A stretch of 48,668 nt of DNA from Nanobdellota archaeon (GCA_038046365.1 JBBSWF010000024.1:1-48668), one strand, 5' to 3'. Counted from the first letter of the stretch, positions 168-34,888 are shown. Translations and numbers: made by a program. The notes: generated by a model from the sequence alone, not told the origin.

Positions 168-1322
168 TCATCTAACCATGGAAAGGATGGCCTTGAAAGA
201 ATCATCCGATAAGCTATCACTATACTCCTTGGCGAGTGAACCTGCCCTTTCTTCATCCAGCCTGATCCCCTTTGAAGCCAGTGAAAACCTAAGCAACCCT
301 GAAGAGAGGAACTGGCAGAACTGAGTCACATTGTGCGGCCGCTGCGTGAAGTGGGCGCGCTCAAAATCAATCATAACTGGCTTGTCGCCTTTAGCGATAA
401 GGATGTGCTTTATCGGGCGGGTCATCTCCTCTTTTGAGATGCCTATCTTGTCAAGCTTCCTGCATTGCTGGATCGCAGCCTTCAAGACTTTGAGGATCCT
501 TGGCTTAGATGATCTTTCGATAAAATCAAGAATCGGGATGCCATCTACGAACACATACGCGACGTATAAATCAGATGAATCAATGAACTTCGGGCCGATC
601 CCTTCTTTGCCGAGGCGCTTTAGCATCTCTGCCTCGTGGAGTATGGAAGCGATGGCCTGCGAGTCCGGGTTCTTGACCTTGATCGCGACTTTCTTGCCTT
701 TGAATCGGCTTGTGAAGACCATGCCTCTCTTGCCCTTGGCGAGGTAGGCTATGCTCTTGAATCCGTCACCTTCTAACCTCTTTCTTGCATCGGACATGAC
801 AAACCTGACGACAAGGAGATCCTCGAAGAAAACATGCTGGCGGTCCAGCTCCTTGAAATCGTATAAAAGCTGTCTTGCGCACTCTTCCACTTTCTCCGGT
901 CTAGTAAGGGATGAGTAGGACGCGATTATCTGGCCTTCCCTGGACAGGTGGTTGAGGGCTTGATGGAGGAACCTGCACATCGTCTCATAACCGTGCTTGC
1001 CTCCGACGAGCGCTTGATCGGTGAGGCCCTGCTCAGCTGGAAGGTAAGGCGGGTTGAAGATGATTGTGTCAAAGACACCTTTGACACTCGAGAAAAGATC
1101 GGAGACTTTGTAAGCGATCTTATCATGGGGATTGTTCTTCTTCGCATGATCTATAGCTTCTTTGTCGATGTCAGTAGCTAGGACGCTTGTGACTTTTGAA
1201 GAACCTGCTGCGGTGAATGCCTGGATTCCTGTCCCTGTGCCCATGTCAAGGACTTTGCCATACGCGAGAACCGCGACGTGCTTGGCAAGCAATGCAGAAT
1301 CCTCTTGGGGTTCGTAGACCAT
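168..1322 (-). CDS. Fusion protein: N-terminal SAM-dependent N-methyltransferase (HemK/PrmC/Mtq2-like, NPPY motif) plus C-terminal small protein-kinase-like domain
   Basis: 384-aa ORF. The N-half has LDMGTGTG (SAM motif I) and IFNPPY (amino/amide N-methyltransferase motif). The C-half has a kinase-like glycine loop plus Lys (AKGKRGMVF..GKKVAIKV) and VMIDFERA (DFG-like), but no HxD catalytic loop. Confidence 0.7.
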   Translation of the reverse strand: MVYEPQEDSALLAKHVAVLAYGKVLDMGTGTGIQAFTAAGSSKVTSVLATDIDKEAIDHAKKNNPHDKIAYKVSDLFSSVKGVFDTIIFNPPYLPAEQGLTDQALVGGKHGYETMCRFLHQALNHLSREGQIIASYSSLTRPEKVEECARQLLYDFKELDRQHVFFEDLLVVRFVMSDARKRLEGDGFKSIAYLAKGKRGMVFTSRFKGKKVAIKVKNPDSQAIASILHEAEMLKRLGKEGIGPKFIDSSDLYVAYVFVDGIPILDFIERSSKPRILKVLKAAIQQCRKLDKIGISKEEMTRPIKHILIAKGDKPVMIDFERAHFTQRPHNVTQFCQFLSSGLLRFSLASKGIRLDEERAGSLAKEYSDSLSDDSFKAILSMVR

Positions 1323-1387
1323 AAGAACTACCCAGAATACGGTCCTATAAATGATTGATGGAGCGACTGATGAACCTCAATCAAACA

Positions 1388-2701
1388 TCATCTCGGGCTA
1401 ACATACTTCTTCACAGCCATGACTTGGTGCTGCATGCCTCTGACGCTGAAGAGTCCCATGAACTCACGGACTACAGCCCAGACTGGCACTTCTCTTGGCC
1501 CCCTTCTCTCCGGGACACAAGCTAGGAAGAAAACGCTTGAGAACCTCAAGACCATAGAGATAGCAAAAACCAACGGAATGCCCGCCAATCCTATCAATGC
1601 GCCTTTGTCAGCGATGATACCTCCGATGATCGGACTGATGATGAGAGGGATAGCAGTAAGCGTCTGGTATTCTGCGACCTGGAACGGCCGGTCTTTGCGG
1701 TCGGTCATATCCAGCAGGAGATTGAAAGTCGTGAGCTCTACGCCTGCCCATACGATACCGGATATTATCTGGGCCGGGATTATCAGCCAGAGGTTCCCTG
1801 GGCCGATGAACAGGAACATGAGCGGGATTAGACCAGTGCCAAAGACGCAGAGCATCGCGATAGGCTTGTCACCATCGTGATCCGTCATTGGGCCGAATAT
1901 CGACTGAGAGAAGACCTTTGCTACGAACTGGATGGCGTTTGCAATTACATAAAGCGAGTAAGACATCGAGAGGTTGTTTAGCATGTATGCGGTGAAAAAC
2001 GGCGAAGAGATCATATAAGCGAAATTGAAAAATAAAGAGAACAAAAGCAGTTTGCCAAAATCCCCTTTCCAGCCTTTTGCGATGTCTTTGAGAGTATGCA
2101 CATCATGGCATTGATACGACGGCTCTTTGAGATTGCTCATGATCCAGGTAGCGAGAAGACCTAGGATGATCCCTAACGTGAATATTATCGCAAATCCCGC
2201 GTGCGAAGTCTTTGGGAATAAATCAAGAATAAACCCCCCAGTCAGGAAAGCTATCATCCCAAGCACTCCCACAAACACTAGGCGCTTGCTAAAGAAAGTC
2301 CCCCTATCCTTCTCTGGGACCACGTCTGCGGCAAGGCTTGTCCAGGCAGGATCAGAGAGGGACTCGCAGAACCGTGCAATAAAATAGAATACCATCACCC
2401 ATAACAGCGCATTCTCTTTGACTAGCAATGGCGCCCCAATTATCAGAAGCCACGTGAGCCTACCGATACTCGTGCTTGTGATATAGAGGACCCTCCTGCT
2501 AAACCTATGGATAAGAAGAACGCCAGGCATCTGAGACACGATCATACTGATATACGGTATCGCCCCAATAAGGCCAATAACGGTGTTTGACGCGCCAAGA
2601 TAAAGAGCGTAAGCTATCAGGAAGACCGTAGTGAGTCCATCATACATCGCCCAAAGGCCGCCATTGCCTAGCAGCACCTTCTGATTATGTGAGATGGCCA
2701 T
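1388..2701 (-). CDS. MFS-type transporter
   Basis: 437-aa ORF made almost entirely of hydrophobic helices arranged in two halves. A basic loop (HRFSRRVLY) follows the second helix, as in MFS motif A. ATG at 2701. Confidence 0.75.
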   Translation of the reverse strand: MAISHNQKVLLGNGGLWAMYDGLTTVFLIAYALYLGASNTVIGLIGAIPYISMIVSQMPGVLLIHRFSRRVLYITSTSIGRLTWLLIIGAPLLVKENALLWVMVFYFIARFCESLSDPAWTSLAADVVPEKDRGTFFSKRLVFVGVLGMIAFLTGGFILDLFPKTSHAGFAIIFTLGIILGLLATWIMSNLKEPSYQCHDVHTLKDIAKGWKGDFGKLLLFSLFFNFAYMISSPFFTAYMLNNLSMSYSLYVIANAIQFVAKVFSQSIFGPMTDHDGDKPIAMLCVFGTGLIPLMFLFIGPGNLWLIIPAQIISGIVWAGVELTTFNLLLDMTDRKDRPFQVAEYQTLTAIPLIISPIIGGIIADKGALIGLAGIPLVFAISMVLRFSSVFFLACVPERRGPREVPVWAVVREFMGLFSVRGMQHQVMAVKKYVSPR

Positions 2702-2766
2702 ATAACTCCTTTCTGTCTAGGAGGTTTTTAATGGTTTGCGAGAGGCGCGCGAAATCTTTCTGGGCA

Positions 2767-3846
2767 TCAATATAGGCCATTTGCCGCAAGCACAAACGCG
2801 ACTTTCGCGGCCTTTGGGATCTTGAGCTTGATCGCCGCAGCCAAAGTCGCGGCAGCGGCAGGATTGGCACCTATCCCCTCCTTCTCGGAGAGAGTCTTTC
2901 TCGCTCGAGCGATATCCATCTCGGAGACCGCTATCATACCCCCTTCACTTTCCTGGACAGACCTGATGGCAAGGTCGCCATCGATCGGGTAGCTGCATGA
3001 GATAGATTTTGGTGAATTCCTCGGGGTGACTCTCCTGATCGGTGAATCAGTGGCAAACGCCCTCACAATAGGGCAGCATCCCTCTGACTGGACACCTACA
3101 AGACGAGGCATATGATACAGAAGTCGCGCTGCGCAAAGATCCTTGCACCCCCTCCAGATCGAAGATATGAGCGAACCATCTCCCATAGGCGCGATGATGT
3201 AGTCAAGCTCGCCTAGCTGGTCGATGACCTCGAAAGCGACGCTCTTTTCGCCTTCACGACGGTAAGCGTAATTGCCTGCGAGGGGAATTTTCTCTTTGTT
3301 AGAGACTGCTTCAGCTTTGGCTGTGGCGGCTGAGCAATCGCCGCGCACGGTTTTGACGTCAGCGCCAAAACCCTCGATCTCACTGATAATCCCCTTTGCG
3401 GCAGTGATCGGGAGGATCACATCACAGTGGATGCCGACCCTGGCACAATAAGCGGCAAGAGACAGGCCTGAGTGACCGGAGCTTGCAATCACCACTCTCT
3501 TTGCATCTCGCTCTTTTAAGGCAGAGACTTCGATCGACGAGCCCCTGTCCTTGACGCTGCCTGTAGGATTGCTGCCTTCAATCTTGAAATGCCAGGATTG
3601 GCTTGAGACTGAATTGATAATCGGCGTGCCACCTTCTCCGAGGCTGACAATATCCTTGAATTGAGGGTAGAATTCTTTATACCTTAAGTGATTGAACGGT
3701 CTTTGGCGCAAAGACTTCCAACGGATGTTGAGACCTGGCCAATCGTATTGGACTAGGATGCTGCCACCGCAGCCGCACCTCTGCTGCGATGAATCCGGGC
3801 TATATCTGCAGCGACACCTTGAACATTGGAGATAAGATACTCGCAT
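2767..3846 (-). CDS. Threonine-synthase-family (fold-type II) PLP-dependent enzyme with N-terminal Cys4 zinc ribbon
   Basis: CSRCRCRY..CGCGG ribbon as in archaeal ThrC. NPTGSVKDRG matches the PLP-lysine motif (TGSFKDR), and ASSGHSG matches the phosphate-binding Gly loop. At 359 aa it is somewhat short for ThrC. Confidence 0.7.
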   Translation of the reverse strand: MRVSYLQCSRCRCRYSPDSSQQRCGCGGSILVQYDWPGLNIRWKSLRQRPFNHLRYKEFYPQFKDIVSLGEGGTPIINSVSSQSWHFKIEGSNPTGSVKDRGSSIEVSALKERDAKRVVIASSGHSGLSLAAYCARVGIHCDVILPITAAKGIISEIEGFGADVKTVRGDCSAATAKAEAVSNKEKIPLAGNYAYRREGEKSVAFEVIDQLGELDYIIAPMGDGSLISSIWRGCKDLCAARLLYHMPRLVGVQSEGCCPIVRAFATDSPIRRVTPRNSPKSISCSYPIDGDLAIRSVQESEGGMIAVSEMDIARARKTLSEKEGIGANPAAAATLAAAIKLKIPKAAKVAFVLAANGLY

Positions 3847-3915
3847 GGCTGATCTACCGTGGACCCTATTTATAAGATTTGCCCGGAGGCAAACTCCCCA
3901 CTATGCTCCGAGGCG

Positions 3916-4623
3916 TCATTGAGCCATAACATGATCCGCAATGAGAAATCCTAGACCGTGATGTATTCTACCGTCATAGACCCCATTGACGTAATCCTCA
4001 AAAATGCCCCAGGGTTTGTGGTAAAGATAAGCTACCCTTTCAAGATCAAACATCAAGGGGCACGCTCGAAGAAACGCGAACTCCTTGAGCAAGTACCAGA
4101 CGCCCTCTTGGACCGCTGGCCCAATCCCGCCCGAATCCTTTAATTTGGGTTCAAGCACAGACCGGGTCTCACGACGAGCACTTTCGGAAAAATGTGGATT
4201 GGACCAGTATAACTCCTTGATCTCCCGGATGGCTTGTCCATAGATCGGATTTCCCTCAACATCTTGAGTCCATTCTATCACCGAGAACCGATCCTTGACA
4301 TGATCTTCGAGAGATCCTATCGCTCTCTTGCAATGGTTTTGGAGAGTGTTCCCATTTAATCTAGCTTTTTGTCTCGCTTTGTTCCCGGAATAACCCAACG
4401 CCTTATAGGTATGTTCAGCCGGCACATCCGGAACCATTACGATAGCTTGAGAAAACACTCTTGATGAGAACTTGATGAGGTCGCTTATCCGATCCTTATT
4501 GAAGTAGCTATTTCCAGGGCTCATACCTATCACGCAGATTCCGCTGTCTCTTACGATCTCATAGCCGACCCGAGCTGCGTTGCCTGTCCTTCCCTGTCTT
4601 ATGCACAAAACCATCTCAACCAC
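3916..4623 (-). CDS. Cyclodipeptide synthase (CDPS), NYH-type
   Basis: 235-aa ORF (GTG at 4623, first ATG at 4614). VIGMSPGNSYF matches AlbC GISAGNSYF (catalytic Ser37/Asn40). WYLLKE matches AlbC YVLAE (Tyr178/Glu182). YLYH matches AlbC CYH (Tyr202/His203). Length and overall collinearity are typical of CDPSs. Confidence 0.8.
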   Translation of the reverse strand: MVEMVLCIRQGRTGNAARVGYEIVRDSGICVIGMSPGNSYFNKDRISDLIKFSSRVFSQAIVMVPDVPAEHTYKALGYSGNKARQKARLNGNTLQNHCKRAIGSLEDHVKDRFSVIEWTQDVEGNPIYGQAIREIKELYWSNPHFSESARRETRSVLEPKLKDSGGIGPAVQEGVWYLLKEFAFLRACPLMFDLERVAYLYHKPWGIFEDYVNGVYDGRIHHGLGFLIADHVMAQ

Positions 4624-4729
4624 TTGCTATTCTTCAATCCTAATAGCTGATATCATTATAATAACTTTAATGATAAAAACTTAGAATAATGATAATATTT
4701 ATATATCTATATCAATCATTACGCTAACC

Positions 4730-5764
4730 ATGGACTCTAAAGACCTGAAGATCCTCAATATCCTGGCACAAAACTGCAGAATCGCAAACACCACTATCGC
4801 GACGGCGCTCCACATCTCCAAAGACACCGTAACATACCGGATCAGGCAACTCCAGTCACAAGGATATCTTAGGCAGTACATGCTTTTTGTGGACGCCAGG
4901 CGGCTAGGATTCACAAGGTACCACATACTCATACGATTCGACCCTGCCATTGAAGACAAAAAGAAAATCATCGAAAGGACAGCAAGGCACCCATTTGTCA
5001 TGTGGATAAACACCTTCATAGGGCGCTATGACGCCCAAATAATAGTCGATGCATCAAACGGCTTTCACCTCAACTCAATTCGGGAAGAGTTATTTAGAAC
5101 AGCAAAACACGGAATCCAGGAATACACTGTACTCACACACCTGCTCGACTTGGAATTTACTCAGCTTAGCCCAATCATTGATGTTGAAACGAGTTTCACA
5201 AGAAAGGACGATTCCTCTTTTAGCAAAAGCCTAACCACACGAAATTTTCCTGTCGGTGCTGACTTCGACAGATACCTCCCTTTAAGGGTAGAGAATGAGA
5301 TCCTGCGTCTTCTGGCGGACGATCCATGCAGCTCGCTTGTCGATATAGCATCCAAAGTCGGCACAGATAGACAGACAGTGAAGAAACATATACAAACCCT
5401 CATAAACCACAAAGTCATCCTGAATTTCGGCGGCATCACAGACCATTCAAAGTTCGGATTCATCACTTACTACCTTCTTGTCCGAATAACACAGGACACT
5501 CCATTACAGACACTAAAACAACCATTTGCATCGCTACATAACATATTCTATGCCGGACGCATGCTTGGGGACTATGACATGATCATTTACCTAAATGCCC
5601 GAAATCCTCAAGAGTTGAATGAAAGCATCGAGTTATTCAAATCAAAACTTGGCAAGCATATCCTACACTACGACCTTCTAGTCCAAGACCGAGTCCATCA
5701 CTGGAGACAGTATAGCGCCGGGATCCATGACCATCTGGTAAAATCCAAAGAAAATCAAGCGTAG
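4730..5764 (+). CDS. Tandem (duplicated) Lrp/AsnC-family transcriptional regulator
   Basis: 344 aa with two HTH_AsnC-like segments (LDSKDLKILNILAQNCR..; ENEILRLLADDPCSS..DIASKVG), each followed by a RAM-like region. Divergent from the CDPS gene across a 106-nt A/T-rich gap. Confidence 0.7.
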   Translation: MDSKDLKILNILAQNCRIANTTIATALHISKDTVTYRIRQLQSQGYLRQYMLFVDARRLGFTRYHILIRFDPAIEDKKKIIERTARHPFVMWINTFIGRYDAQIIVDASNGFHLNSIREELFRTAKHGIQEYTVLTHLLDLEFTQLSPIIDVETSFTRKDDSSFSKSLTTRNFPVGADFDRYLPLRVENEILRLLADDPCSSLVDIASKVGTDRQTVKKHIQTLINHKVILNFGGITDHSKFGFITYYLLVRITQDTPLQTLKQPFASLHNIFYAGRMLGDYDMIIYLNARNPQELNESIELFKSKLGKHILHYDLLVQDRVHHWRQYSAGIHDHLVKSKENQA

Positions 5765-5795
5765 AAGCAGTTATTGTCTCATATCAAGATACCCC

Positions 5796-6827
5796 TCATC
5801 TCCAGTAGACTTCGATCTGGTCGGTGCGCAGATAAGGCTTGATGTCGATCTTGTCTAAGGTGAGGGATATCGGCTGAGCTTTGTATTGAAGGATGCCAAG
5901 CCACGCGATCATCGCAGCATTGTCGACTAGGAATTGATTCTCTGGGGAGGCGAACTTGGCATTTCTCTCCTTGCACATGATCCCGCACATCTCTTGGAGA
6001 CGTTTATTGCAGGCGACGCCTCCACCTAGCAGGAGCTCTGATTTCCCGCAGTGGGCCATCGCGCGTTCAGAGACTTCTACAAGCATCGCGAAGACGGTTT
6101 CCTGGACAGAGAAGGCGAGATCAAAATCGTTTAATGTTCCCCCTTCGGTGGAACTTAAACGATTTTGGGTGTTAGACGATTTCATTGAGACAATCTTCTG
6201 TTTAAGGTTAGTGAAGAGGCCACCGAAAGTGACGTCCATCCCCTTGACGCTGTAGGGGAGATGGATGAGGTTTGTTCCATTGAGGGCCAGCTGCTCGACT
6301 TTCGGACCGCCGGGGAATCCTAATCCTAATTCTCGCGCGAAGGAATCGATAAAGTTGCCCACTCCGCCGTCGATGGACTCGCCGAAGACCCGATATTTCC
6401 CGCCGTCATAGGCGATGATCTGAGTGTTGGCGCCGGATGCATAGAGCATGACTGGGTCTTGCATGCCAGTGCGGAGACGGCCAATCTCAAGGTGGGCGAC
6501 ACAATGGTTGACTCCGATGACCGGGATCTTGTGGAGAACGTGAATAGACCTTGCTACGTCGCATCCTACCTTGAGGGCGTTGCCGATGCCTGGAGATTGG
6601 GAGTAAGAGATGATGTCGATATCTTTGATCTTGAGACCTGCTTTGTTCAATGCCTGATTGAGGATCCTTCCACAGACATCGACGTGATGCTCGCCCAACT
6701 TGAACGGAATGAGTCCGCCTTCCTCGGTGGTGTAGAGATCCTTCTCGTTGGCAAGGACGTTGCCTTTGTCGTCCATGATGGCGATGCCGAATGTGTGGGC
6801 AGTGGATTCTATGCCTAGGGAGAGCAT
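5796..6827 (-). CDS. kae1: tRNA N6-adenosine threonylcarbamoyltransferase Kae1 (stand-alone, not fused to Bud32)
   Basis: LGIESTAHTFGIAI N-terminus, metal-binding NHCVAHLE motif, and GGGVACN near the C-terminus. 343 aa. Confidence 0.9.
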   Translation of the reverse strand: MLSLGIESTAHTFGIAIMDDKGNVLANEKDLYTTEEGGLIPFKLGEHHVDVCGRILNQALNKAGLKIKDIDIISYSQSPGIGNALKVGCDVARSIHVLHKIPVIGVNHCVAHLEIGRLRTGMQDPVMLYASGANTQIIAYDGGKYRVFGESIDGGVGNFIDSFARELGLGFPGGPKVEQLALNGTNLIHLPYSVKGMDVTFGGLFTNLKQKIVSMKSSNTQNRLSSTEGGTLNDFDLAFSVQETVFAMLVEVSERAMAHCGKSELLLGGGVACNKRLQEMCGIMCKERNAKFASPENQFLVDNAAMIAWLGILQYKAQPISLTLDKIDIKPYLRTDQIEVYWR

Positions 6828-8354: not shown

Positions 8355-9128
8355 GTGACCCCGGCCACAATTATGGACACGCGAGTGCTACAAGAGCTGG
8401 GACTCACTGATGGGGAGATCAAGGTGTACCTGGCGCTCGTAGGGTTGGGCGAGACGACCTCCGGACCGCTTGTAGAAGAGTCGGGTGTATCTGTGTCCAA
8501 GGTCTACACTATACTGAACAGATTGGCCAAGAAAGGTCTGGCGAGCCACACATTCAAGAGGGGGACGAAATACTTCCGGGCCGCCGATCCTAATCGACTG
8601 GTCGACTTCGCAGAGGACCAGGAAGAACAATTGAAGAAAAGGATTGCTGACCTGAAAAATCTGATACCTGAACTTGAGATCCGGCAGCAATCCATCCGCG
8701 TAGAAGAGACCGCGCAGGTATTCGACGGACTCCGAGGGATACAGACAGCGCGAGAACGGACATTAAAGATAATGAAACCTGGCGATGAGATGTGGATAGT
8801 CGGGATCGCGACGACGCCTTACGACCGGTTGACCCCTTATTTTCAAGAGTATCATAAGCGAAGATATGAGAAAGGGATCAAATGCAGATATCTCTACAAT
8901 GAATACGCACGCAAACCATTCGGTGAGGTGTCAAAGAAATATCCACTGAGCGAAGTAAAATTCATGCCAGAGGGTATGATCACACACGCTTGGATGGAGA
9001 TATATGCTGATACTGTGACGATCGGATTAAACTACAAGAAATCATTCTCTGTCGTGATCCAGAACCAGGAAGTCGCCGACTCGTTCCGGAATTATGCTTC
9101 CTTGATGTGGAGCATAGCCACTCCTTGA
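8355..9128 (+). CDS. TrmB-family transcriptional regulator
   Basis: N-terminal LGLTDGEIKVYLALVGLGETTSGPLVEESGVSVSKVYTILNRLAKKGL is a typical TrmB wHTH. 257 aa (GTG 8355, ATG 8373). Confidence 0.75.
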   Translation: MTPATIMDTRVLQELGLTDGEIKVYLALVGLGETTSGPLVEESGVSVSKVYTILNRLAKKGLASHTFKRGTKYFRAADPNRLVDFAEDQEEQLKKRIADLKNLIPELEIRQQSIRVEETAQVFDGLRGIQTARERTLKIMKPGDEMWIVGIATTPYDRLTPYFQEYHKRRYEKGIKCRYLYNEYARKPFGEVSKKYPLSEVKFMPEGMITHAWMEIYADTVTIGLNYKKSFSVVIQNQEVADSFRNYASLMWSIATP

Positions 9129-9179
9129 ACTTGTCTGCTCCATCTAGGCGTTCAGGAAGATATTTAAGCGTACCATCCC

Positions 9180-9392
9180 TTGCACCAATCTATGGAAATC
9201 AAAGTAATATTGGAACCTCAAGAAGAAGGCGGATTCACTGTATATGTCCCCTCTTTGCCGGGATGTGTCTCACAAGGAGAGACTAGAGCCGAAGCTCTGA
9301 AAAACATCAAAGAAGCCATCGAACTCCATCTGGAAGCCGATGATAACGAGCTTGTCCTTTACGAAGGCGAAGTCGCCAAGATAGCGGTATGA
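9180..9392 (+). CDS. hicB: HicB-family antitoxin (UPF0150-like)
   Basis: FTVYVPSLPGCVSQGETRAEALKNIKEAIELHLE motif. Probable ATG at 9192. Overlaps the next gene by ATGA. Confidence 0.8.
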   Translation: MHQSMEIKVILEPQEEGGFTVYVPSLPGCVSQGETRAEALKNIKEAIELHLEADDNELVLYEGEVAKIAV

Positions 9393-9607
9393 AACTCCCT
9401 CAGATCTCTGGAATCGACCTCATCAAGAAGCTGCGCGACCAGGGTTTTGTGGTCGTGAGACAGAAAGGGAGCCACATACGGCTAGAGAAAAACACTCCGG
9501 AAGGCGTGATAAAGATCACTGTGCCGAACCATCCTGTCTTGAAGAAAGGAACCCTTCACCACATACTCAAGGATGCGGGGGTAGATCCGGACACAATCTT
9601 CATGTGA
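9389..9607 (+). CDS. hicA: HicA-family toxin (mRNA interferase)
   Basis: 72 aa. The ISGIDLIKKLRDQGFVVVRQKGSHIRL core is typical of HicA/YcfA. Confidence 0.8.
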   Translation: MKLPQISGIDLIKKLRDQGFVVVRQKGSHIRLEKNTPEGVIKITVPNHPVLKKGTLHHILKDAGVDPDTIFM

Positions 9608-10075
9608 TTATTTTGTCTTCTGATCGGGCTTCTTGACCTCAGCGAGGTATTCTTTGACTCTATCGACTATAGTGCGGAGATAGAACTTCTCTATCTTCTC
9701 CTCGAAGATCTCGATCAGGGATGAGTTCTCAGTAACGCGGTAGCTGTTGTCTGCTTTCTCTATCAGGAACAACTCCTTCAGACGCCTGATCTGCCGACGT
9801 ATGTTTGAGCCGGCCACTCCTGACTGCGCGAGCTTGTACTTCGACCTGTTCTTGATCACCGCTTCGATTATATCCTCTGCAGTGAGCGGAGTCTTGGAAT
9901 CGAGGATCACCTGGAAGACATCAACTATGACATCCCTTGAGTCACCTGGCTGAAGAAGGCCTAGCGAGAGGCATATCTTCTTCACAAGTTCACGGCGCTC
10001 AAGATTGAACGGGCGCTCATATTTTCGCAGAGTGATCTCTGCCAACGGCGTGTCCTTTGAAGTCAGGTTTCCCAT
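9608..10075 (-). CDS. Predicted winged-helix DNA-binding protein (conserved archaeal hypothetical)
   Basis: 155 aa with a mid-region resembling a wHTH (LTAEDIIEAVIKNR...SNIRRQIRRLKELFLIEK). The assignment is weak. Confidence 0.4.
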   Translation of the reverse strand: MGNLTSKDTPLAEITLRKYERPFNLERRELVKKICLSLGLLQPGDSRDVIVDVFQVILDSKTPLTAEDIIEAVIKNRSKYKLAQSGVAGSNIRRQIRRLKELFLIEKADNSYRVTENSSLIEIFEEKIEKFYLRTIVDRVKEYLAEVKKPDQKTK

Positions 10076-10170
10076 GATTGCCGACGAGGATGGGCGCTGC
10101 CTTTTGAGGCTTTGCCTCTCAAGGACGGCGACTGCCTATCCCCATATTTCCCCCAATGTATTGATCGTGA

Positions 10171-10737
10171 TTACCAACCGAACCAGGAAAGGACACGCGA
10201 GACAAATGACGTCGTGCCGTACTTGACCTCTCCTGCGAATGTGACTGCCTCGTAACGGATCTCCCGATTGTCCAATGCCGCCTTCGCGGCCATAGCAGGG
10301 TCCTTAGAGGACATAAGCTTGCGGATGACCGATTCGTCAGTGTAGACTTTCAGCGTTGGGTTGTCGATCTCTCCTCTTTGGAATTGAATGACTTTGCCAT
10401 CCTTTGTGACCGCGCCAACGATAAGAGCGTCACCTGATGACAAGTAAATCGTGCCGATGATACGTTCGTTGCCGAACAATGATTTGAGGAATGAAGGAAC
10501 CTGATCATTGTACTTGTTGATCTCAGCCGATCCCTTATCAATGAATTGGAACAGTGAGTCCGGATCTGAAAAATCCACGTTTTGGGCGCCAGTGATGTTG
10601 TCCCCTAAGATCGCGATGACTCCTATCGAAGCGAAAATCAGAATCAATCCTACTGCAGAACCACAAAAAGAAAATTGTGGCTCCCCTGCCGATGCCTTTG
10701 GTTGACTTTTGTATGTGATCTTCGGCAAAAGAGCCAC
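10171..10737 (-). CDS. Membrane-anchored hypothetical protein (single N-terminal TM helix, extracytoplasmic domain)
   Basis: The ORF is open to 10872, but the first 45 codons are low-complexity. A GTG at 10737 gives a short basic N-terminus followed by the TM segment GSAVGLILIFASIGVIAILG. Confidence 0.45.
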   Translation of the reverse strand: MALLPKITYKSQPKASAGEPQFSFCGSAVGLILIFASIGVIAILGDNITGAQNVDFSDPDSLFQFIDKGSAEINKYNDQVPSFLKSLFGNERIIGTIYLSSGDALIVGAVTKDGKVIQFQRGEIDNPTLKVYTDESVIRKLMSSKDPAMAAKAALDNREIRYEAVTFAGEVKYGTTSFVSRVLSWFGW

Positions 10738-10890
10738 CCCCTTGGTCTTTTGTGTTAAAACTTTTAAGAAAAGACTAGTATTTAATGGTTTTGATGATAG
10801 GGGGCTGGAATTGTCAATCGGACTGCTGGAAAATATAAATCTGGCCTGGATACAAAGAATAAGTCGAAGCAAAAATGGGATGATCCTGGC

Positions 10891-11910
10891 TCACTTAGCC
10901 TTCCGATACTTCCAGATCGATGAGATACCATTGTTCTCTGCCGCCGGGCGGATAGCTTCGAGGAGGAAATTGTGGATATCTTTATTGGCTGAAGCTATGA
11001 GCGTGCCTGACTCCCTGGTGATCGGGTTTCCGAACTGGTCGCTGACCATGCCTCCGGCTTCTTTGACCAGGAGCAGACCTGGATAGATATCATTGATGTC
11101 CACGCCGATGATCATGTACGCTCCTAAGCGCCCTGATGCCAATGCGCAGAGGCCATAAGAAGCAGAGCCGATGCAAGGAGTGTAGTAGACACTTTTATCG
11201 TCTGCGAAACGGCTGATTATGTGCGTGAGCTTCTGGCCGCGATCGACGTAACCCAAGTCATATCCAACTTGGATCTTGGATTTCTTTTGCGTGGTCGACA
11301 ACTTCGAAGAGCTGCCGCCTACGCAAAACCTCCATTCTTCTAATGCCATCCCCACTGTCTGATCCGTGGTGGGGTAAAACGGATAGCCGACCTTCCATAC
11401 CAAATGATCGCGATCCACAACCTCCTGGAGGTCTATCAAAAAAGCGCCCTTGCCTTTCGCGGCGACGTAAACGACGTTCTCTGAAGGAATCGCGATAGCA
11501 TTGATGAGACACTCATCTCCCTCAAGATAAGCCACTGCCTTGCCCCACTGAGGAAGGCCGTCCTTGAAGTTAGGCGTGCCGTCGATGGCGTCCAAGATCC
11601 AGAGCTTATGCTGCTTCCTTGTCCATTGAGAATCATTGCGGTCCTTCGATTCCTCGGCGAACACGGTGATGCCTGGAGTCTTGGCTTGGAAGAGCTTGGT
11701 GGTGATCTCTTCAAGATGGTTGTCCCAGTAAGTGCAGGCATCGCAGCCACCCTTGTCCTCGAGGATCATAGGCTTGCCTGACGCTTCCTTGACTTCGAAG
11801 AAACCCTGGAGGGCGGCTTCGATGGCGACAGGGACGAGCTCTTCGATGGTGTGGATGGTGGACATGGAGGGTACCTCGCTTTGTTTTTCTACTCTTGTTT
11901 GGATCTTCAC
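10891..11910 (-). CDS. Inositol-monophosphatase / FBPase-family phosphatase (long form)
   Basis: WILDAIDGTPNF (DPIDGT motif), GSASYGLCALASG and LLVKEAGGMVSD motifs. At 339 aa it is longer than typical SuhB. Confidence 0.8.
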   Translation of the reverse strand: MKIQTRVEKQSEVPSMSTIHTIEELVPVAIEAALQGFFEVKEASGKPMILEDKGGCDACTYWDNHLEEITTKLFQAKTPGITVFAEESKDRNDSQWTRKQHKLWILDAIDGTPNFKDGLPQWGKAVAYLEGDECLINAIAIPSENVVYVAAKGKGAFLIDLQEVVDRDHLVWKVGYPFYPTTDQTVGMALEEWRFCVGGSSSKLSTTQKKSKIQVGYDLGYVDRGQKLTHIISRFADDKSVYYTPCIGSASYGLCALASGRLGAYMIIGVDINDIYPGLLLVKEAGGMVSDQFGNPITRESGTLIASANKDIHNFLLEAIRPAAENNGISSIWKYRKAK

Positions 11911-12968
11911 GCCGGGAATCTGTATTGCGGCTGATCAAGTATGTGCTTCAACGCATCCCTATCTTTTAAACCAACATAGACAAGGAGGCCTCCTCTTCCT
12001 AGTGGGACCATGTTATTGTTGATTGGCTTTGGCAGGGCGATAGCGCCACTTGGGTCGGCGAGGTCGAACGTCTTCTTCCCTGCGAGGACATCGACTAGAG
12101 TGCCAAAATCCACAGCGACGAATCCCTTGTGCTGGCCCTTGTCTGCTGCGGCGTAGAAACCATTTGTCTTGATGTGCTCAGCTGTGGCGTTGACCTTGGC
12201 CTGATAGTTGAGGTCGACAGAGCTGATACCATAAGTGACGCCGATGAGATCCATCTTTGCCACATCCTTCTCAGTGATACTGGCTTCCTGGATCATCTCC
12301 TGGAACATAGATTGCTTGAAGTGGGCCAAGGCTTTCTGTCCGTCGTCGGGAAGATCGAATAACTCATACTTAGGCTCGGTGAAACCGCCTATATTGTGCC
12401 AATAACCAGGATACAATGGGGAACGGCTAGACGAACGTTTTCCGATGACGATGAGGTTGTCAGAAGTCTCGACAACGACGTCGACAGCGACCGCATTGGC
12501 GAAATAAGCCATAGGATCATCGAAGTCCCTCTGACCGTTTAGCATCAGCCTTCCATGGAACACTGGATCATACAACGCACGGACATTGGTAGCTTCGTGC
12601 TCAGGGAAGTGGGTCGGTCCGAACTTCAACGTGAGGGAACCCTCCTTTCCAAAACTATGCCCATCAAAACGGAATTTCCGGTCATCGAACTTCTTGTTCT
12701 TGGGATCATGCACAAGACCTATCAACCCTTGTTCGCCGGCCCATAACACCCTCTCGCGGACGGCAGTGTCAAAACTTCTCGATACCGGGGACTGAATGCC
12801 TCCATAGAACTTGTATGTCGATAAATCACCAGCAGTGACTGCCCGGGCAAAGCCTTTCTTTATGATGATCGATGGAGCGTTGACAACTGCATCGATTCCA
12901 TCGACGCTCTCTGGAACTATGACATGCCCGTTTGGAATATTTATCATACCTACATCCTCCTGATTCAC
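11907..12968 (-). CDS. Hypothetical protein, possible degenerate Nudix fold in the C-terminal half
   Basis: 353 aa. GKRSSSRSPLYPGYWHNIGGFTEP...FQEMIQEASI loosely resembles a Nudix box (GG-x-x-E ... E-x-x-x-E). 4-nt overlap with the IMPase-family gene. Confidence 0.45.
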   Translation of the reverse strand: MNQEDVGMINIPNGHVIVPESVDGIDAVVNAPSIIIKKGFARAVTAGDLSTYKFYGGIQSPVSRSFDTAVRERVLWAGEQGLIGLVHDPKNKKFDDRKFRFDGHSFGKEGSLTLKFGPTHFPEHEATNVRALYDPVFHGRLMLNGQRDFDDPMAYFANAVAVDVVVETSDNLIVIGKRSSSRSPLYPGYWHNIGGFTEPKYELFDLPDDGQKALAHFKQSMFQEMIQEASITEKDVAKMDLIGVTYGISSVDLNYQAKVNATAEHIKTNGFYAAADKGQHKGFVAVDFGTLVDVLAGKKTFDLADPSGAIALPKPINNNMVPLGRGGLLVYVGLKDRDALKHILDQPQYRFPA

Positions 12969-13014
12969 CGACGGGAAACCCCGGACTATTTAAAAAGGTG
13001 CTGTTCATCAACTC

Positions 13015-13734
13015 GTGGATAAACCTCACTTTTTTATCCTTCAGGCCCCTTGGGATGACATGGACAACAGATCATCGCCAACAGCCCGGAACATCCTGTT
13101 CGTGATCCATCCGACAGCATCCTACGACGTGAGCAGGAGCGCGGAACAAGGGATAAGGCACCTCGCGAGTTCTCCGGATTTCCATGAAGTCAAAATCGTA
13201 GACTCAAAACAAGGAGATCCTGGGCATAGGTACCTATCAGATGGTCCCGACTACCTTTCTGATAATGGGTCCATCCCAAAGAAAAAGATACATCTGCCCC
13301 AGCAACCGGTGACCATCACAGTCGCCGGCGGCTTCTTCAACCAATGCTTCGAGAACGGAGCGAAATCAATACTGAGAGCGTGCCCTAACCTGGAGGAACT
13401 CGTGTTCCCTCTTGAAGGGATATACCTGGACGCCTTGGCGATCGGACGAGATCATTTCTATATGGGTATCCCTCTAAATCCGAGTGTATTGCGAAAGAGA
13501 GTGCCTCGCCCCCGCCTGGGTGAGGCAGATTACACTGTGACCCTCATGACACTCCTACAGGCCGCCCTAGACCCTACAGCGGCAGAGAATGAGCTACGCA
13601 ACCATGTGAATAAATACTACAATCTACCCTACCCTGTCGAAAGCTTCTTCACCGCGCGGCACGGGCAGAGATGTCTGGCGCATCGACCATCACGCGAACT
13701 CGAAGAAGGATATCATTCGACGATGGGATATTAA
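13015..13734 (+). CDS. Hypothetical protein
   Basis: 239-aa ORF (GTG 13015, about 20 nt after TATTTAAAAA; ATG at 13060). No recognisable motifs. Confidence 0.4.
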   Translation: MDKPHFFILQAPWDDMDNRSSPTARNILFVIHPTASYDVSRSAEQGIRHLASSPDFHEVKIVDSKQGDPGHRYLSDGPDYLSDNGSIPKKKIHLPQQPVTITVAGGFFNQCFENGAKSILRACPNLEELVFPLEGIYLDALAIGRDHFYMGIPLNPSVLRKRVPRPRLGEADYTVTLMTLLQAALDPTAAENELRNHVNKYYNLPYPVESFFTARHGQRCLAHRPSRELEEGYHSTMGY

Positions 13735-13789
13735 AAAGATATTCAAACAATAACCTGCCTATTTCTTAGGTTCAACCCAGAAAACTCTC

Positions 13790-14182
13790 TTACCACTTCT
13801 CGACTGATAGGCCCGGGACATGCTTGAAGTGATCGATGTTGCGGGTGACTATAGTCGCGCCATGGCTGACGCATATGCCTGCGATGATGGTGTCAAAAGC
13901 GCCGATAGGGGTGCCTTTCTTGCGCAGAAAATTGTCAATCTCGATCTCCTGATGGACGCTGTCAAGGTCATATCCTATCGGGTCTAGAGCGTCAAAGAAT
14001 CTAAGAGCGTCTTTGAACTGCTTGCGGTTCTCCCGCGCCTTCGCCCCAGCAAGGACTTCCTGGGCATTGATTACAGTGGTCGAGAGCCGTTCGTTGTCAG
14101 CGGACAGTTCTTTGAGCTTTTTCACAGCGTCTTGGTTGTTCTTTAATATCGCGATTATCAAATCGCTATCAATAACTTTCAT
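13790..14182 (-). CDS. vapC: PIN-domain toxin VapC
   Basis: 130 aa. MKVIDSDLIIAIL N-terminus (first acidic residue) and FDTIIAGICVSHGATIVTRNIDHFKHVPGL C-terminal PIN signature. Confidence 0.8.
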   Translation of the reverse strand: MKVIDSDLIIAILKNNQDAVKKLKELSADNERLSTTVINAQEVLAGAKARENRKQFKDALRFFDALDPIGYDLDSVHQEIEIDNFLRKKGTPIGAFDTIIAGICVSHGATIVTRNIDHFKHVPGLSVEKW

Positions 14183-28513: not shown

Positions 28514-29632
28514 CTATGGGTTTATGGGTATGATCTTCCCATCATGGACGATCTTCATCTGGAAAGGCATCTGGACCATCGAATCCTGGTATCTGATGCC
28601 GCGGATCGCTTTGTTATGGTTGTTCACCTGGTCGATAAAATCCCCTTTGTCCAGAGCACCGGCCTTGATCGACTCGTAGAGCGCAGCGGAGAGTTCATAG
28701 CCAAGCGCATGGTAAAGATTCGGGGTCATGTTGTAGTCTTCCATGATACGCGCTGAGAACTCTGCATCATAATCGTCTTTGATCTGGCCGCCGGCATAAA
28801 CTCCTTCCATGATATCCTTGAATTGATTGGCATAACCTTCTTCCAGGTCCATGCCGAAAATGATCGTGATCCCCGGATCCTGCTCCTTGAGGATCTTGAT
28901 CATACTGGTGCTCACTTGGATGTCCGGTATGATGACGTAAACCACATCAGGCTTGGTGGATGTCACCTTTGTGGCATAGGTGTAGAGGACTTTATCACCT
29001 TTCAGATCTAGCTTGTCGATCCCGAGAATAGTCTGATTGTGTTCGGCAGCTGCTCGCTTGATATTATCTTCCATTTGCTGGCCTAGCGCTGACTGCTCGG
29101 TGATCAGGTAACCGGTGTGTCTCCCGATACTTTGCGCAAAGCTCACCTCCTGATCGGCTTGTTGAGACAGAGACGGATAGCTGCATACCACGTTCGTGTA
29201 ATTCCTGAACTCATCGGTGCATAAAGTGATTGCCGCGACAAATGAGGCGTTCTTATCTTCATCACTCATCGCCCCCTCAATCGCGATTGTGGCTGCCGGT
29301 CCTAGCGGTCCGACGAAAGCTCTGACACCATCGATATCACGCAACTTCCTGTAGGATGTAAGGGAGCCCTTAGAATCCCATCTATCATCCTCATAGATCA
29401 CTTTAACCTCGGGATGGGTCTTAGCAAAGACCTCCACTCCCTGCTTGATCTCCTCGCCCAATCTGCTCAGGTCGCCGGAAAGCGGCCCGATGAAACCAAT
29501 AGTGACGCCGGCATGGGCAGACTGCGTTGCTTTGCCATCGATACCGGGGCTGCTGCATGAAGACAACAACAGCGTGATGATTAAAATCGCGGCCACGACG
29601 TCTTTTGCCTTAACTTGGGTGTGCAGTTCCAT
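28514..29632 (-). CDS. Type-1 periplasmic-binding-protein-fold solute-binding protein (LivJ/branched-chain amino-acid-like), lipobox-like signal
   Basis: Signal sequence with AAILIITLLLSSCSS, then GFIGPLSGDLSRLGEE, typical of Leu/Ile/Val-binding SBPs. No ABC permease or ATPase gene is nearby. Start 29632 or 29659. Confidence 0.7.
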   Translation of the reverse strand: MELHTQVKAKDVVAAILIITLLLSSCSSPGIDGKATQSAHAGVTIGFIGPLSGDLSRLGEEIKQGVEVFAKTHPEVKVIYEDDRWDSKGSLTSYRKLRDIDGVRAFVGPLGPAATIAIEGAMSDEDKNASFVAAITLCTDEFRNYTNVVCSYPSLSQQADQEVSFAQSIGRHTGYLITEQSALGQQMEDNIKRAAAEHNQTILGIDKLDLKGDKVLYTYATKVTSTKPDVVYVIIPDIQVSTSMIKILKEQDPGITIIFGMDLEEGYANQFKDIMEGVYAGGQIKDDYDAEFSARIMEDYNMTPNLYHALGYELSAALYESIKAGALDKGDFIDQVNNHNKAIRGIRYQDSMVQMPFQMKIVHDGKIIPINP

Positions 29633-29728
29633 CTTGAATACACAAATCGATGCCTTCATAAGAAACAACGCTTCACTTTTTCGAATAAACACGCCAACTT
29701 TTTAAATAAATGACTACTTTGTTCGGTC

Positions 29729-30820
29729 ATGTCTGAAAACTCCGATGATGGATGGACTATCTTCCTGCCGAAGGAAAGGAGAGAGGTGGAGCTCGATAAG
29801 AAAGACCTCCTGATCATGCAGACCCTGAGCGAGAATTGCAGGACAACCTTGCCTGTGATGAGGCGTATAGTGGGCTTATCAAAGAGCAGCATACTCAACC
29901 GGATAGAAAGACTTGAACGGATAGGGGTCATAAGAGGATATTCAACGATCGTCAACATACATCGACTCGGTCTGAGGATGTTCAGCGTGTTGATCTCATC
30001 TAATATGACTTTGAATGAGAAGATTGAGTTCGGCAGATCATGCGAAAAGATTCCATCCCTGAACCAAGTCCTGACCTTCCAGACCGGGCCATGGGATCTC
30101 ATGCTCCGACTCTATGCGAAGGACAATCGGTATCTTGATCACATCCTGACCCAGATCACGGCGAAGGGAAAAATAGCAGACCTGGAGATACTTGAACTCG
30201 ATGACTGGTTCTTCCTTCCTATAAATTATCTGCAGGTAGAGACGCATCTGGACAATCACTGCACAAAATCTGACACTTCTTTCCAGCATATACTGCGCAA
30301 GAGGAAACCGGTGCTTGATCCGCGCCATGACATAAAAGACATCCGGATCCTGGGCGTATTGGCCAAGAATCCGAGGATCAGCCTCAGCCATCTGGGAGAG
30401 AAGGCTGGAATGTCCGCAGACGCGGTCAAGGATCGCATCGCCAGGCTCGCAGACCAAGGGATCATAGGCCACTTCTTCGCAAACCTGGACCCCTATATGC
30501 TCGGACTGAGCGGATATGTCTTGTTCGTGCAAGTCTTTGATAGGTCACGGATGAAACAGATGATCGAATTCCTGATGCGGCAGCCTCAAATGCAAGGTGG
30601 CGTGCTGAAATATACTGGAGCCTGGAACCTACAGGCTTTCCTTGTAGTAAAAGACGTCATGGACCTTCGGGCTTTTGAGGAGAATTTCATCTCGCATTTT
30701 GGTGGTAGCATCCATAAGTATCTCATCGCACAGCTGGCTGAGCAGACGTACTACTCACTATTCCCGGCTGAGATACAGAAAGTGGCGGAAGAGTCAATCT
30801 CTGAGCATGCTCCTCGATGA
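29729..30820 (+). CDS. Tandem (duplicated) Lrp/AsnC-family transcriptional regulator, paralogue of 4730..5764
   Basis: 363 aa with two HTH_AsnC-like segments (LDKKDLLIMQTLSENCR..; DIKDIRILGVLAKNPRISLSHLGEKAG), each followed by a RAM-like region. Confidence 0.7.
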   Translation: MSENSDDGWTIFLPKERREVELDKKDLLIMQTLSENCRTTLPVMRRIVGLSKSSILNRIERLERIGVIRGYSTIVNIHRLGLRMFSVLISSNMTLNEKIEFGRSCEKIPSLNQVLTFQTGPWDLMLRLYAKDNRYLDHILTQITAKGKIADLEILELDDWFFLPINYLQVETHLDNHCTKSDTSFQHILRKRKPVLDPRHDIKDIRILGVLAKNPRISLSHLGEKAGMSADAVKDRIARLADQGIIGHFFANLDPYMLGLSGYVLFVQVFDRSRMKQMIEFLMRQPQMQGGVLKYTGAWNLQAFLVVKDVMDLRAFEENFISHFGGSIHKYLIAQLAEQTYYSLFPAEIQKVAEESISEHAPR

Positions 30821-34183: not shown

Positions 34184-34885
34184 GTGATTATGATGTGGAA
34201 CTACTTCCCAAAAGCAGCGCCTCGACCTAAACCAGTCCAGGGCAAGGAACGCATGAAATTCGGGACGACCTGGTGGGGCAAGAAGTGGGTCGAAGCTGTC
34301 GAGGGGATAGGAGATCAACAGCGCATGTCACGCGGCAGAGCGTACGCACGGGCGAACCGGGCCTTCAACATAGATATAAAAGAAGGGAATGTGACCGCAA
34401 AGGTGGAAGGGTCGCATGGGGACTACAAGGTGTCGATGCGATTCTCGAAGATCGACGGGGACGATAAGGATAGACTATTATCCTCGCTTGTCGCCCAGCC
34501 AGAACTTCTCGGCGCGATTCTCAATAATGAAGTGCCTGATAATCTCGAAGACGCATCAAAGGTGGACTTGATACCGACGGAATTCGACTCGAAATGTTCA
34601 TGCCCAGACTACGAGAACCCCTGCAAACATATCGCCGCGGTTTTCTATGCCCTAGCAGCCGAGATTGATGCGGCTCCGCAAATACTCCTCAAGATCCGTG
34701 GAGTGGATAAGAATGACATCTTGAACGTAGCGACAGGGACGCTCGAGGCCGGTATCGATCATCCGAGCACCGTGAAAAAAGCGCGCAAATCCAAACAGAG
34801 CCGGCCAGCCAAACCGACTAAGAAAAGACCTATTAAGAAGGCGGCCACCTCACTAAAGAAGCCGGGAAAAACCAGACGAGAATAG
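34184..34885 (+). CDS. SWIM zinc-finger protein (partner of SNF2 helicase)
   Basis: FGTTWWGKKWVEAV..RMSRGRAYAR N-terminus and CSCPDYENPCKHIAAVFY (CxCxnCxH SWIM motif). Basic C-terminal tail. Confidence 0.8.
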   Translation: MIMMWNYFPKAAPRPKPVQGKERMKFGTTWWGKKWVEAVEGIGDQQRMSRGRAYARANRAFNIDIKEGNVTAKVEGSHGDYKVSMRFSKIDGDDKDRLLSSLVAQPELLGAILNNEVPDNLEDASKVDLIPTEFDSKCSCPDYENPCKHIAAVFYALAAEIDAAPQILLKIRGVDKNDILNVATGTLEAGIDHPSTVKKARKSKQSRPAKPTKKRPIKKAATSLKKPGKTRRE

Positions 34886-34888
34886 ATT

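Follow-up and report, generated by a model that had tools for sequence, protein, structure and literature searches.

A groundwater contig of 48,668 nt from a Nanobdellota archaeon (GCA_038046365.1, JBBSWF010000024.1:1-48668; this whole stretch is called the window below) carries a gene for a cyclodipeptide synthase (CDPS) lying head to head with a gene for a tandem Lrp/AsnC-family regulator, here named Lrp2. On the CDPS strand follow genes for a pyridoxal phosphate (PLP) enzyme of the ThrC family, a transporter of the major facilitator superfamily (MFS) and a methyltransferase-kinase fusion. A sequence-only reading of positions 168-5764 had proposed that these four co-directional genes constitute a diketopiperazine gene cluster. 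In our analysis the locus probably consists of two unrelated units placed side by side: (i) a regulator-CDPS module and (ii) a pre-existing string of housekeeping genes, with the module inserted between the gene for Kae1 and the PLP enzyme gene. The order of genes at the locus would be a juxtaposition by insertion and as such is no evidence of a shared pathway. Several genes of the window have homologues in metagenome-assembled genomes of Woesearchaeota/Nanoarchaeia (DPANN archaea).

The module is defined by the joint distribution of its two genes. We found 20 non-redundant regulator-CDPS loci in DPANN archaea (Woesearchaeota/Nanoarchaeia), in which the divergent tandem Lrp gene is the sole companion of CDPS; the linkage of the two genes suggested earlier is thus well supported. 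When open reading frames (ORFs) were clustered over 19 loci, Lrp2 and CDPS were the only recurrent families, and the genes for the PLP enzyme, the MFS transporter and the fusion are absent from 18 other non-redundant Lrp2-CDPS loci. The same holds for metagenome contigs from distinct samples with CDPS at 44-49% identity: all carry a divergent tandem Lrp gene of ~340 codons beside CDPS, and none has a PLP enzyme, MFS or methyltransferase gene after it.

A scan of GTDB genomes with the single CDPS protein returned nothing, and an alignment-based scan (one genome per species) was used instead. It produced 63 CDPS loci, which were taken with flanks of up to 8 kb and searched by tblastn with six window proteins. 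Wherever an archaeal CDPS of this clade had upstream DNA, Lrp2 was detected next to it (60-63% identity), including all five loci where CDPS was at least 40% identical to that of the window and had more than ~500 nt of upstream DNA, while it was absent at the bacterial CDPS loci (mostly of Patescibacteria, Melainabacteria and Bdellovibrionota). Genes for the PLP enzyme, the MFS transporter, the fusion and Kae1 were found in none of the 63 loci. Conservation of the neighborhood around CDPS homologues, put forward as a check of the four-gene cluster, was therefore not observed, and the cluster itself does not stand: its other three members occur near CDPS only in near-identical relatives of the window.

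A reciprocal search started from the Lrp2 alignment gave the same picture, with CDPS present in 11 of the 14 GTDB loci and in 16 of the 17 informative metagenome loci (out of 19 found). Pairwise identities of Lrp2 and CDPS covary across the 20 non-redundant pairs (Mantel r 0.76, p 0.0005). Lrp2 was more conserved than CDPS in all 190 comparisons, with mean identities of 68% and 47%, respectively. Some pair-carrying loci (L012/L157, L156 and L164) come from bins labeled Methanosarcinales or Bdellovibrionota, which mis-binning or transfer may explain. In one close relative, L008, an opposite-strand gene call after CDPS suggested the loss of the PLP gene; BLASTN showed that the call is spurious and that the PLP gene is present.

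The CDPS gene (3916-4614, minus strand, 232 aa) passed both family models (PF16715, 109 bits versus a cut-off of 27, E-value 3e-31; TIGR04539, 128 bits versus 45). Its ORF extends to a GTG at 4623. Judging from the sequence, the most likely start of translation is ATG 4614 (MVLC...), because the same start is used in the 77%-identical orthologue P0002 and an SD-like (Shine-Dalgarno-like) GTGGTTGAG precedes it. With this start the divergent spacer becomes 115 nt long; the earlier description of the spacer as A/T-rich is confirmed, and its length of 106 nt probably has to be corrected.

The catalytic set of CDPS is intact (S35 in G-x-S-x-x-N-S and the pair Y177 and E181, in the numbering of the 235-aa ORF), and 29 homologues show no variation at S35, N38, Y177, E181, Y201 or H202. 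From the numbering offset we take S35, Y177 and E181 to be the counterparts of AlbC S37, Y178 and E182. The protein also has the triad N38, Y201 and H202, which assigns it to the NYH subfamily as defined at AlbC positions 40, 202 and 203 (PMC11610984). The nearest solved structures are those of YvmC (a cLL synthase), BtCDPS and AlbC, all of them distant. Only 46 relatives were detectable in a large protein collection. The GC content at third codon positions (GC3) of the CDPS gene is the lowest among the 30 genes of the window.

The Lrp2 gene (4730-5764, plus strand) encodes 344 aa with two HTH_24/HTH_AsnC stretches (2e-21 and 2e-18), each a helix-turn-helix (HTH) unit, and RAM domains, for which a match was obtained. 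The Lrp2 profile matches the structures of the archaeal regulatory proteins of the feast/famine type (FFRPs) PH1519, PH0061 and LrpA with each half of the chain (residues 2-137 and 186-305), and the protein is 55-64% identical across loci. Weak matches to AhbA/AhbB had raised the possibility of an Lrp-like siroheme decarboxylase; this candidate was rejected, as a profile search of solved structures returned only bona fide FFRP regulators. With a GC content of 0.448, Lrp2 is the lowest of the 30 window genes (against 0.506 ± 0.023), and many homologous loci have a GC content of 28-40%.

Another tandem Lrp/AsnC protein is encoded in the window (within 28514-30820); it has 363 aa and shares 26% identity with Lrp2. 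Its gene is divergent from a gene for a Peripla_BP_6 solute-binding protein across a gap of 36 nt, and a perfect TTTAAATA lies at -28. This genome thus seems to make habitual use of duplicated Lrp proteins.

The region between the two genes of the module (4615-4729) has a GC content of 24% and reads as a bidirectional promoter region. Alignment of 24 distinct intergenic sequences anchored on the ATG of Lrp2 revealed two conserved blocks at a fixed distance from the Lrp2 start. Block A (window 4652-4665) has the sequence ACAATATAATAAAC, which on the CDPS strand reads as the TATA-like TTATTATA. Block B (window 4683-4705), AGAAWAATG-N-GTAATATTTATATA, contains a canonical TTTATATA at 4698-4705, 32 nt before the Lrp2 ATG. 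Both blocks are candidate Lrp2 sites. An inverted repeat of 18 nt (4651-4668/4677-4694) spans both blocks in the window; it is unproven as a conserved operator dyad, since the best dyads did not exceed those in shuffles of the same A/T-rich sequence and the center is not kept across loci.

At three loci small genes other than CDPS lie opposite Lrp2 (L163, 5500-5892; L169, 5543-5905; L168, 5444-5881). They code for a small membrane protein (in two loci, the two proteins being 50% identical to each other) or for a lipoprotein-like protein. These loci have the same promoter blocks as the regulator-CDPS loci, and it looks as if the regulator forms a cassette able to carry different cargo.

The second unit includes the genes that flank the module on both sides. 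Upstream of it lies the gene for Kae1 (5796-6827, minus strand), a housekeeping subunit of the tRNA t6A synthase (TIGR03722, 401 bits versus a cut-off of 375). On the other side lie, all on the minus strand, genes for the PLP enzyme (2767-3846, 359 aa, with an N-terminal Zn ribbon; PALP, 6e-57), the MFS transporter (1388-2701, 437 aa; MFS_1, 4e-34) and the fusion (168-1322). For the five genes covered by the earlier reading (CDPS, Lrp2 and these three), coordinates, strands and spacings agreed with our ORF check (gaps of 65, 65 and 69 nt and, with the CDPS ORF extended to its GTG at 4623, a divergent spacer of 106 nt), and the identifications agreed with searches by Pfam/NCBIfam-type models.

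Relatives show this string without the module. Contexts of the DPANN subclade of PLP enzymes were taken from exact-protein look-ups. In the contig encoding P0050 (a PLP enzyme 50% identical to that of the window), genes labeled Kae1, PALP, MFS and MTS (385 aa) are co-directional, with Kae1 directly upstream of the PLP gene and no regulator or CDPS gene. The P0052 contig (49% identity) holds genes for Kae1, a small kinase, PALP, a 384-aa MTS protein and MFS; Kae1 and the PLP gene are one gene apart, with neither Lrp2 nor CDPS between them, and the 384-aa protein is a 60%-identical orthologue of the window fusion. A VapBC pair lies between the fusion and MFS genes of this contig. The MFS gene is downstream of the PLP gene in L155 (P0049, 64% identity), where CDPS, the regulator and Kae1 are all untraceable in the 349 nt upstream of the PLP gene, and it is upstream of a 74%-identical fusion in L269. 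The order PLP-then-MFS is retained in L155, L010 and L250. An alignment-based GTDB scan for the PLP enzyme returned ordinary ThrC genes (best identity 36%) and no loci of the DPANN subclade.

A ThrC-family gene adjoins the Kae1 gene in relatives (the P0050 and P0052 contigs; ENA ERZ27297570; compare window 2767-6827). Kae1 builds t6A, a threonine-containing tRNA modification.

The PLP enzyme is a ThrC-family protein by sequence, since with the profile of its DPANN clade the solved threonine synthases are hit at 5e-84, compared with 4e-31 for the next family. The window protein itself scores below every NCBIfam cut-off for ThrC (best, PRK08197, 204 bits versus 303; TIGR00260, 113 versus 167). 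The proteins most closely related to it have ~365 aa and come from DPANN archaea. The PLP-binding lysine is K99 in S-V-KDRG, and the four cysteines of the N-terminal ribbon (C8, C11, C24 and C26) are conserved in the family. The public gene call (314 aa) loses the Zn ribbon, whereas homologues support the 359-aa ORF. The observation that the gene lacks threonine-pathway companions was confirmed and extended to the whole window.

In the fusion, the N-terminal part (~1-180) matches TIGR00537 (103 bits versus a cut-off of 87) and has the invariant motif N90-P91-P92-Y93. The C-terminal part (~190-384) has no Pfam match; it matches Geoglobus Ark1 (8yv4, 1e-15) and TkArkI (7vnx, 8e-11). An AlphaFold model of the protein (predicted local distance difference test, pLDDT, 88.7) was compared with known structures by Foldseek: the C-terminal half matched G. 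acetivorans Ark1 and TkArkI (template modeling (TM) score 0.76-0.83, probability 1.0), and the N-terminal half HemK2-TRMT112 and Mtq2-Trm112 (TM about 0.7-0.77). ArkI phosphorylates the 2'-OH of tRNA U47 and has DFE in place of DFG (Ohira 2022, PMC9095486); other non-canonical motifs of TkArkI are HGQ and a C-terminal YKR (PMC9095486). In the fusion D319, F320 and E321 (DFE) are invariant, only the catalytic-loop H306 is left of HGQ, and YS stands where the family consensus is YK. That the C-terminal half might supply the Bud32 which the unfused Kae1 lacks had also been considered; the idea was dismissed in view of the matches of this half to RNA kinases of the Ark1/ArkI type.

The search gave 1775 homologues of the fusion. 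The best 120 of them are ~385 aa long, 45-85% identical over the full length and from Woesearchaeota/Nanoarchaeia, with several annotated as HemK2/MTQ2. HemK2/Mtq2-ArkI fusions make up >100 protein clusters of Woesearchaeota/Nanoarchaeia (loci L170-L186 and L204). None of the genes for CDPS, Lrp2, the PLP enzyme or Kae1 was found within 9 kb of the fusion in any of 18 GTDB loci. Some genomes have a separate gene for each half (L177), or a single half was found in them; that fusions exist at all is a hint that both activities are functionally linked. By its sequence and model the protein is predicted to be translation-related and of a housekeeping type, not a diketopiperazine N-methyltransferase; the latter role, once suggested by the NPPY motif, gives way to that of a widespread Mtq2-like/ArkI-like fusion.

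Each of the 65-69-nt gaps of the string contains a TATA-like element that starts 28-31 nt before the next start codon: CTTATAAATA at 3867-3876 before the PLP gene, ATTAAAAA at 2725-2732 before the MFS gene and TTTATAGG at 1344-1351 before the fusion gene. The element of the PLP gene belongs to an invariant island, GCAA[AG]TCTTATAAAT, whose spacing to the ATG is unchanged in L155; the remaining upstream sequence of L155 does not align. The MFS gap has the conserved motif CTCGCAAA[CG]CATTAAAAAC, and the TATA-like element of the MFS gene is kept in L155 as well. Several unrelated genes of the window have a perfect TTTAAATA or TTTATATA at -26 to -38, while none of the operon-like tight junctions in the window (gaps of -4 to 18 nt) has a TATA-like element. 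These features suggest that the downstream genes would be transcribed independently. The uniform gaps of ~65 nt are here promoter-sized spacers and probably no operon junctions, which calls for caution when function is deduced from gene order in compact archaeal genomes.

The mechanism we propose is as follows. Unit 1 (3916-5764) would be a self-contained two-gene module of DPANN archaea, in which an NYH-type CDPS and a tandem Lrp regulator are transcribed divergently from a conserved spacer of ~115 nt, with one putative TATA box each. CDPS would take two aminoacyl-tRNAs and release a cyclodipeptide via an acyl-enzyme at Ser35; the product is expected to stay unmodified, and no tailoring enzyme is conserved with CDPS. 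Lrp2, whose two HTH and two RAM domains are predicted to form a pseudo-dimer within one chain, is most likely a binder of the spacer. It would set the transcription of CDPS and of its own gene according to a small ligand, which may be an amino acid or the cyclodipeptide. Unit 2 (Kae1, the PLP enzyme of ThrC type, the MFS transporter and the Mtq2-like/ArkI-like fusion) would have been in place before Unit 1, which was probably inserted into the Kae1-PLP spacer in an ancestor of the narrow lineage of the window. The lowest GC of Lrp2 and the lowest GC3 of CDPS agree with such an insertion; a search for insertion-site repeats flanking the Lrp2-CDPS segment found none.

Several observations weigh against the two-unit reading. 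The close relatives L008, L009, L010 and L250 keep the order Kae1-Lrp2-CDPS-PLP-MFS, which is thus stable within the lineage (identities to the window of 86% for Kae1, 92% for the regulator, 76% for CDPS, 82% for the PLP enzyme and 83% for MFS). The window PLP enzyme and its 82%-identical orthologue alter motifs that are otherwise invariant in the family, ASTGN to ASSGH, GNGT to GDGS (GDGSL in the window protein), SFKDRG to SVKDRG and TGHGLK to AANGLY, and they have a shorter C-terminus; ASTGN is retained in 23 of 25 family members and in 2zsj. A change of chemistry is possible on the basis of these motifs, and they leave a small opening for a new CDPS-linked function. The CDPS-less synteny of Unit 2 comes from two contigs (gene calls and Pfam labels only) and two short contigs, and more distant genomes show no linkage of Kae1, PLP and MFS genes to the fusion gene; Unit 2 is therefore a family-level neighborhood and no deep operon. 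For the MFS and fusion genes the TATA-like matches have two mismatches. No strong oligo-T terminator follows CDPS, and read-through into the PLP gene is possible. Lastly, Lrp2 faces divergent partners other than CDPS in 3 of 14 loci (L163, L168 and L169).

Some of these points would be accounted for if CDPS, the PLP enzyme, the MFS transporter and the fusion formed one diketopiperazine pathway, with tailoring of the product by the PLP enzyme and the NPPY methyltransferase, export by the MFS protein and control by the Lrp protein. CDPS clusters typically hold a transporter, tailoring enzymes and a regulator (PMC11610984), and the co-directional genes, their short gaps and the lack of a clear terminator after CDPS would fit; still, every gene has a TATA-like element of its own, kept for the PLP and MFS genes in L155, which has no CDPS in the 349 nt upstream of its PLP gene. 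L250, a close relative, has the same order, yet the three genes are missing from 18 other Lrp2-CDPS loci and from the 63 GTDB CDPS loci and are syntenic with Kae1 in relatives that have no CDPS. The PLP enzyme is under constraint, as its divergence from the close relative (82% identity) equals that of its neighbors, and the full remodeling of its motifs (ASSGH, AANGLY) is seen only in this lineage; two of the four motif changes, however, are already present in P0049, the 64%-identical relative with no CDPS within 349 nt upstream. The methyltransferase belongs to a ubiquitous Mtq2/ArkI-type fusion. We regard a single pathway as decidedly improbable.

Two other explanations concern the relation between Lrp2 and CDPS. 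The pair might be a minimal signal-synthase/receptor system with LuxI/LuxR-like autoinducing logic, where the two RAM domains sense the untailored cyclodipeptide and both divergent promoters are then driven, letting a host-dependent archaeon sense density or contact. Such a role would suit the strict, co-evolving pairing without tailoring or export genes, a receptor-like partner more conserved than the synthase in every comparison and a shared bidirectional promoter that allows feedback; diketopiperazines from a haloarchaeon are, moreover, active on quorum-sensing reporters, as cited in PMC4609331, and were reported without a biosynthetic gene. Yet the ligand is putative, each half of Lrp2 resembles amino-acid-binding FFRPs, three loci have this regulator and promoter with partners other than CDPS, and the second tandem Lrp gene lies beside one for an amino-acid-type binding protein, which suggests that the format may be the ordinary amino-acid sensor of the lineage. 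We consider the signaling role rather unlikely. At the other extreme Lrp2 could be a general feast/famine regulator, adjacent to CDPS by shared inheritance only, with CDPS constitutive or controlled elsewhere. Lrp-family proteins are often global regulators, and the CDPS-less loci L163, L168 and L169, which have the same promoter blocks, would agree; but the adjacency is found in about 27 of 31 informative loci despite full turnover of the other neighbors, the divergent arrangement and spacing are fixed, and Lrp2 and CDPS covary, which makes this explanation very improbable. The reading of the locus as a regulator-CDPS module set into a housekeeping string remains the one we favor.

The claim that the window holds the first fold-type II PLP tailoring enzyme of a CDPS pathway is thus removed as unsupported. 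What replaces it is a testable two-gene cyclodipeptide module recurrent in DPANN archaea. DPANN archaea are thought to be host-dependent and to have almost no secondary metabolism. A synthase that would drain aminoacyl-tRNAs under a highly conserved sensor of the amino-acid type is a plausible handle on DPANN signaling or competition, and, if the signal-pair reading were true, genome-reduced, host-dependent archaea would possess a self-contained chemical communication module moving as a cassette of ~1.9 kb.

Elsewhere in the window several other loci attracted attention. An intein with Hint and LAGLIDADG domains splits the SufB gene (42369-44981), separating the N-terminal SufBD region from the core. 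A single ORF of 797 aa at 44986-47379 joins a SufBD core (SufD-like) to a class-V aminotransferase (a SufS-like cysteine desulfurase), and a gene for a NifU-like scaffold follows it with an overlap of 4 nt. At 34184-37123 a gene for a SWIM zinc-finger protein is followed, after 3 nt, by one for an SNF2-family helicase with DUF3670. Public calls place toxin-antitoxin genes (PIN/VapC with a VapB-like antitoxin; HicA) at 9128-14182, near an inositol monophosphatase gene.

In the literature searched, overviews of the CDPS family make no mention of archaea, and no link of CDPS to DPANN archaea or to Lrp proteins was met; this does not prove absence. The features that set the module apart from known CDPS loci are the DPANN host, the lack of any tailoring gene conserved with CDPS, a regulator of the tandem Lrp type whose conservation exceeds that of the synthase, and a cassette-like distribution.

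Two components of Unit 2 can be compared with known proteins. With the short bacterial/archaeal type of ThrC (2zsj, 1uim) the window PLP enzyme shares fold-type II, the lysine in S-x-KDRG and a conserved arginine in YRxEG; it differs in belonging to the ~365-aa Zn-ribbon clade of DPANN archaea, in its altered motifs and shorter C-terminus and in having no threonine-pathway companions. The N-terminal half of the fusion has the fold of Mtq2 and the NPPY motif of the HemK2/Mtq2-Trm112 methyltransferase, whose target is the GGQ glutamine of the release factor, and the C-terminal half has the fold of Ark1 with DFE for DFG, as in the ArkI/Ark1 tRNA U47 2'-kinase (COG2112, AQ578); both functions are predictions from sequence and structural model. 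Unlike in HemK2/Mtq2 and ArkI, the two activities would be fused here, and HGQ and YKR of TkArkI are partly kept (H306; YS for YK). Homologues of ArkI are known mainly from thermophilic archaea (PMC9095486), whereas the window organism comes from a groundwater sample (Hain_H52_02um).

Lrp2 can be compared with archaeal FFRPs such as FL11/PH1519, LrpA, LysM and Grp, whose HTH and RAM arrangement is found in, and matched by, each of its halves. Like them, it is divergent from its likely target across an A/T-rich control region. Unlike them, it has two complete units in one chain of 344 aa, and its predicted target is a tRNA-dependent peptide synthase, not a gene of an amino-acid pathway.

The closest parallel to the module as a whole is the pulcherrimin locus of Bacillus (yvmC-cypX with YvmB as MarR-type regulator and YvmA as MFS exporter), where an NYH-type CDPS likewise has its own winged-helix regulator within the cluster. 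Among solved CDPS structures YvmC is nearest in sequence, and an MFS gene is near in both loci (PMC11610984). The archaeal CDPS differs in that it has no conserved P450 or other tailoring gene, its regulator is a tandem Lrp/AsnC protein and not of the MarR type, the neighboring MFS gene is not conserved with CDPS, and the host is a DPANN archaeon.

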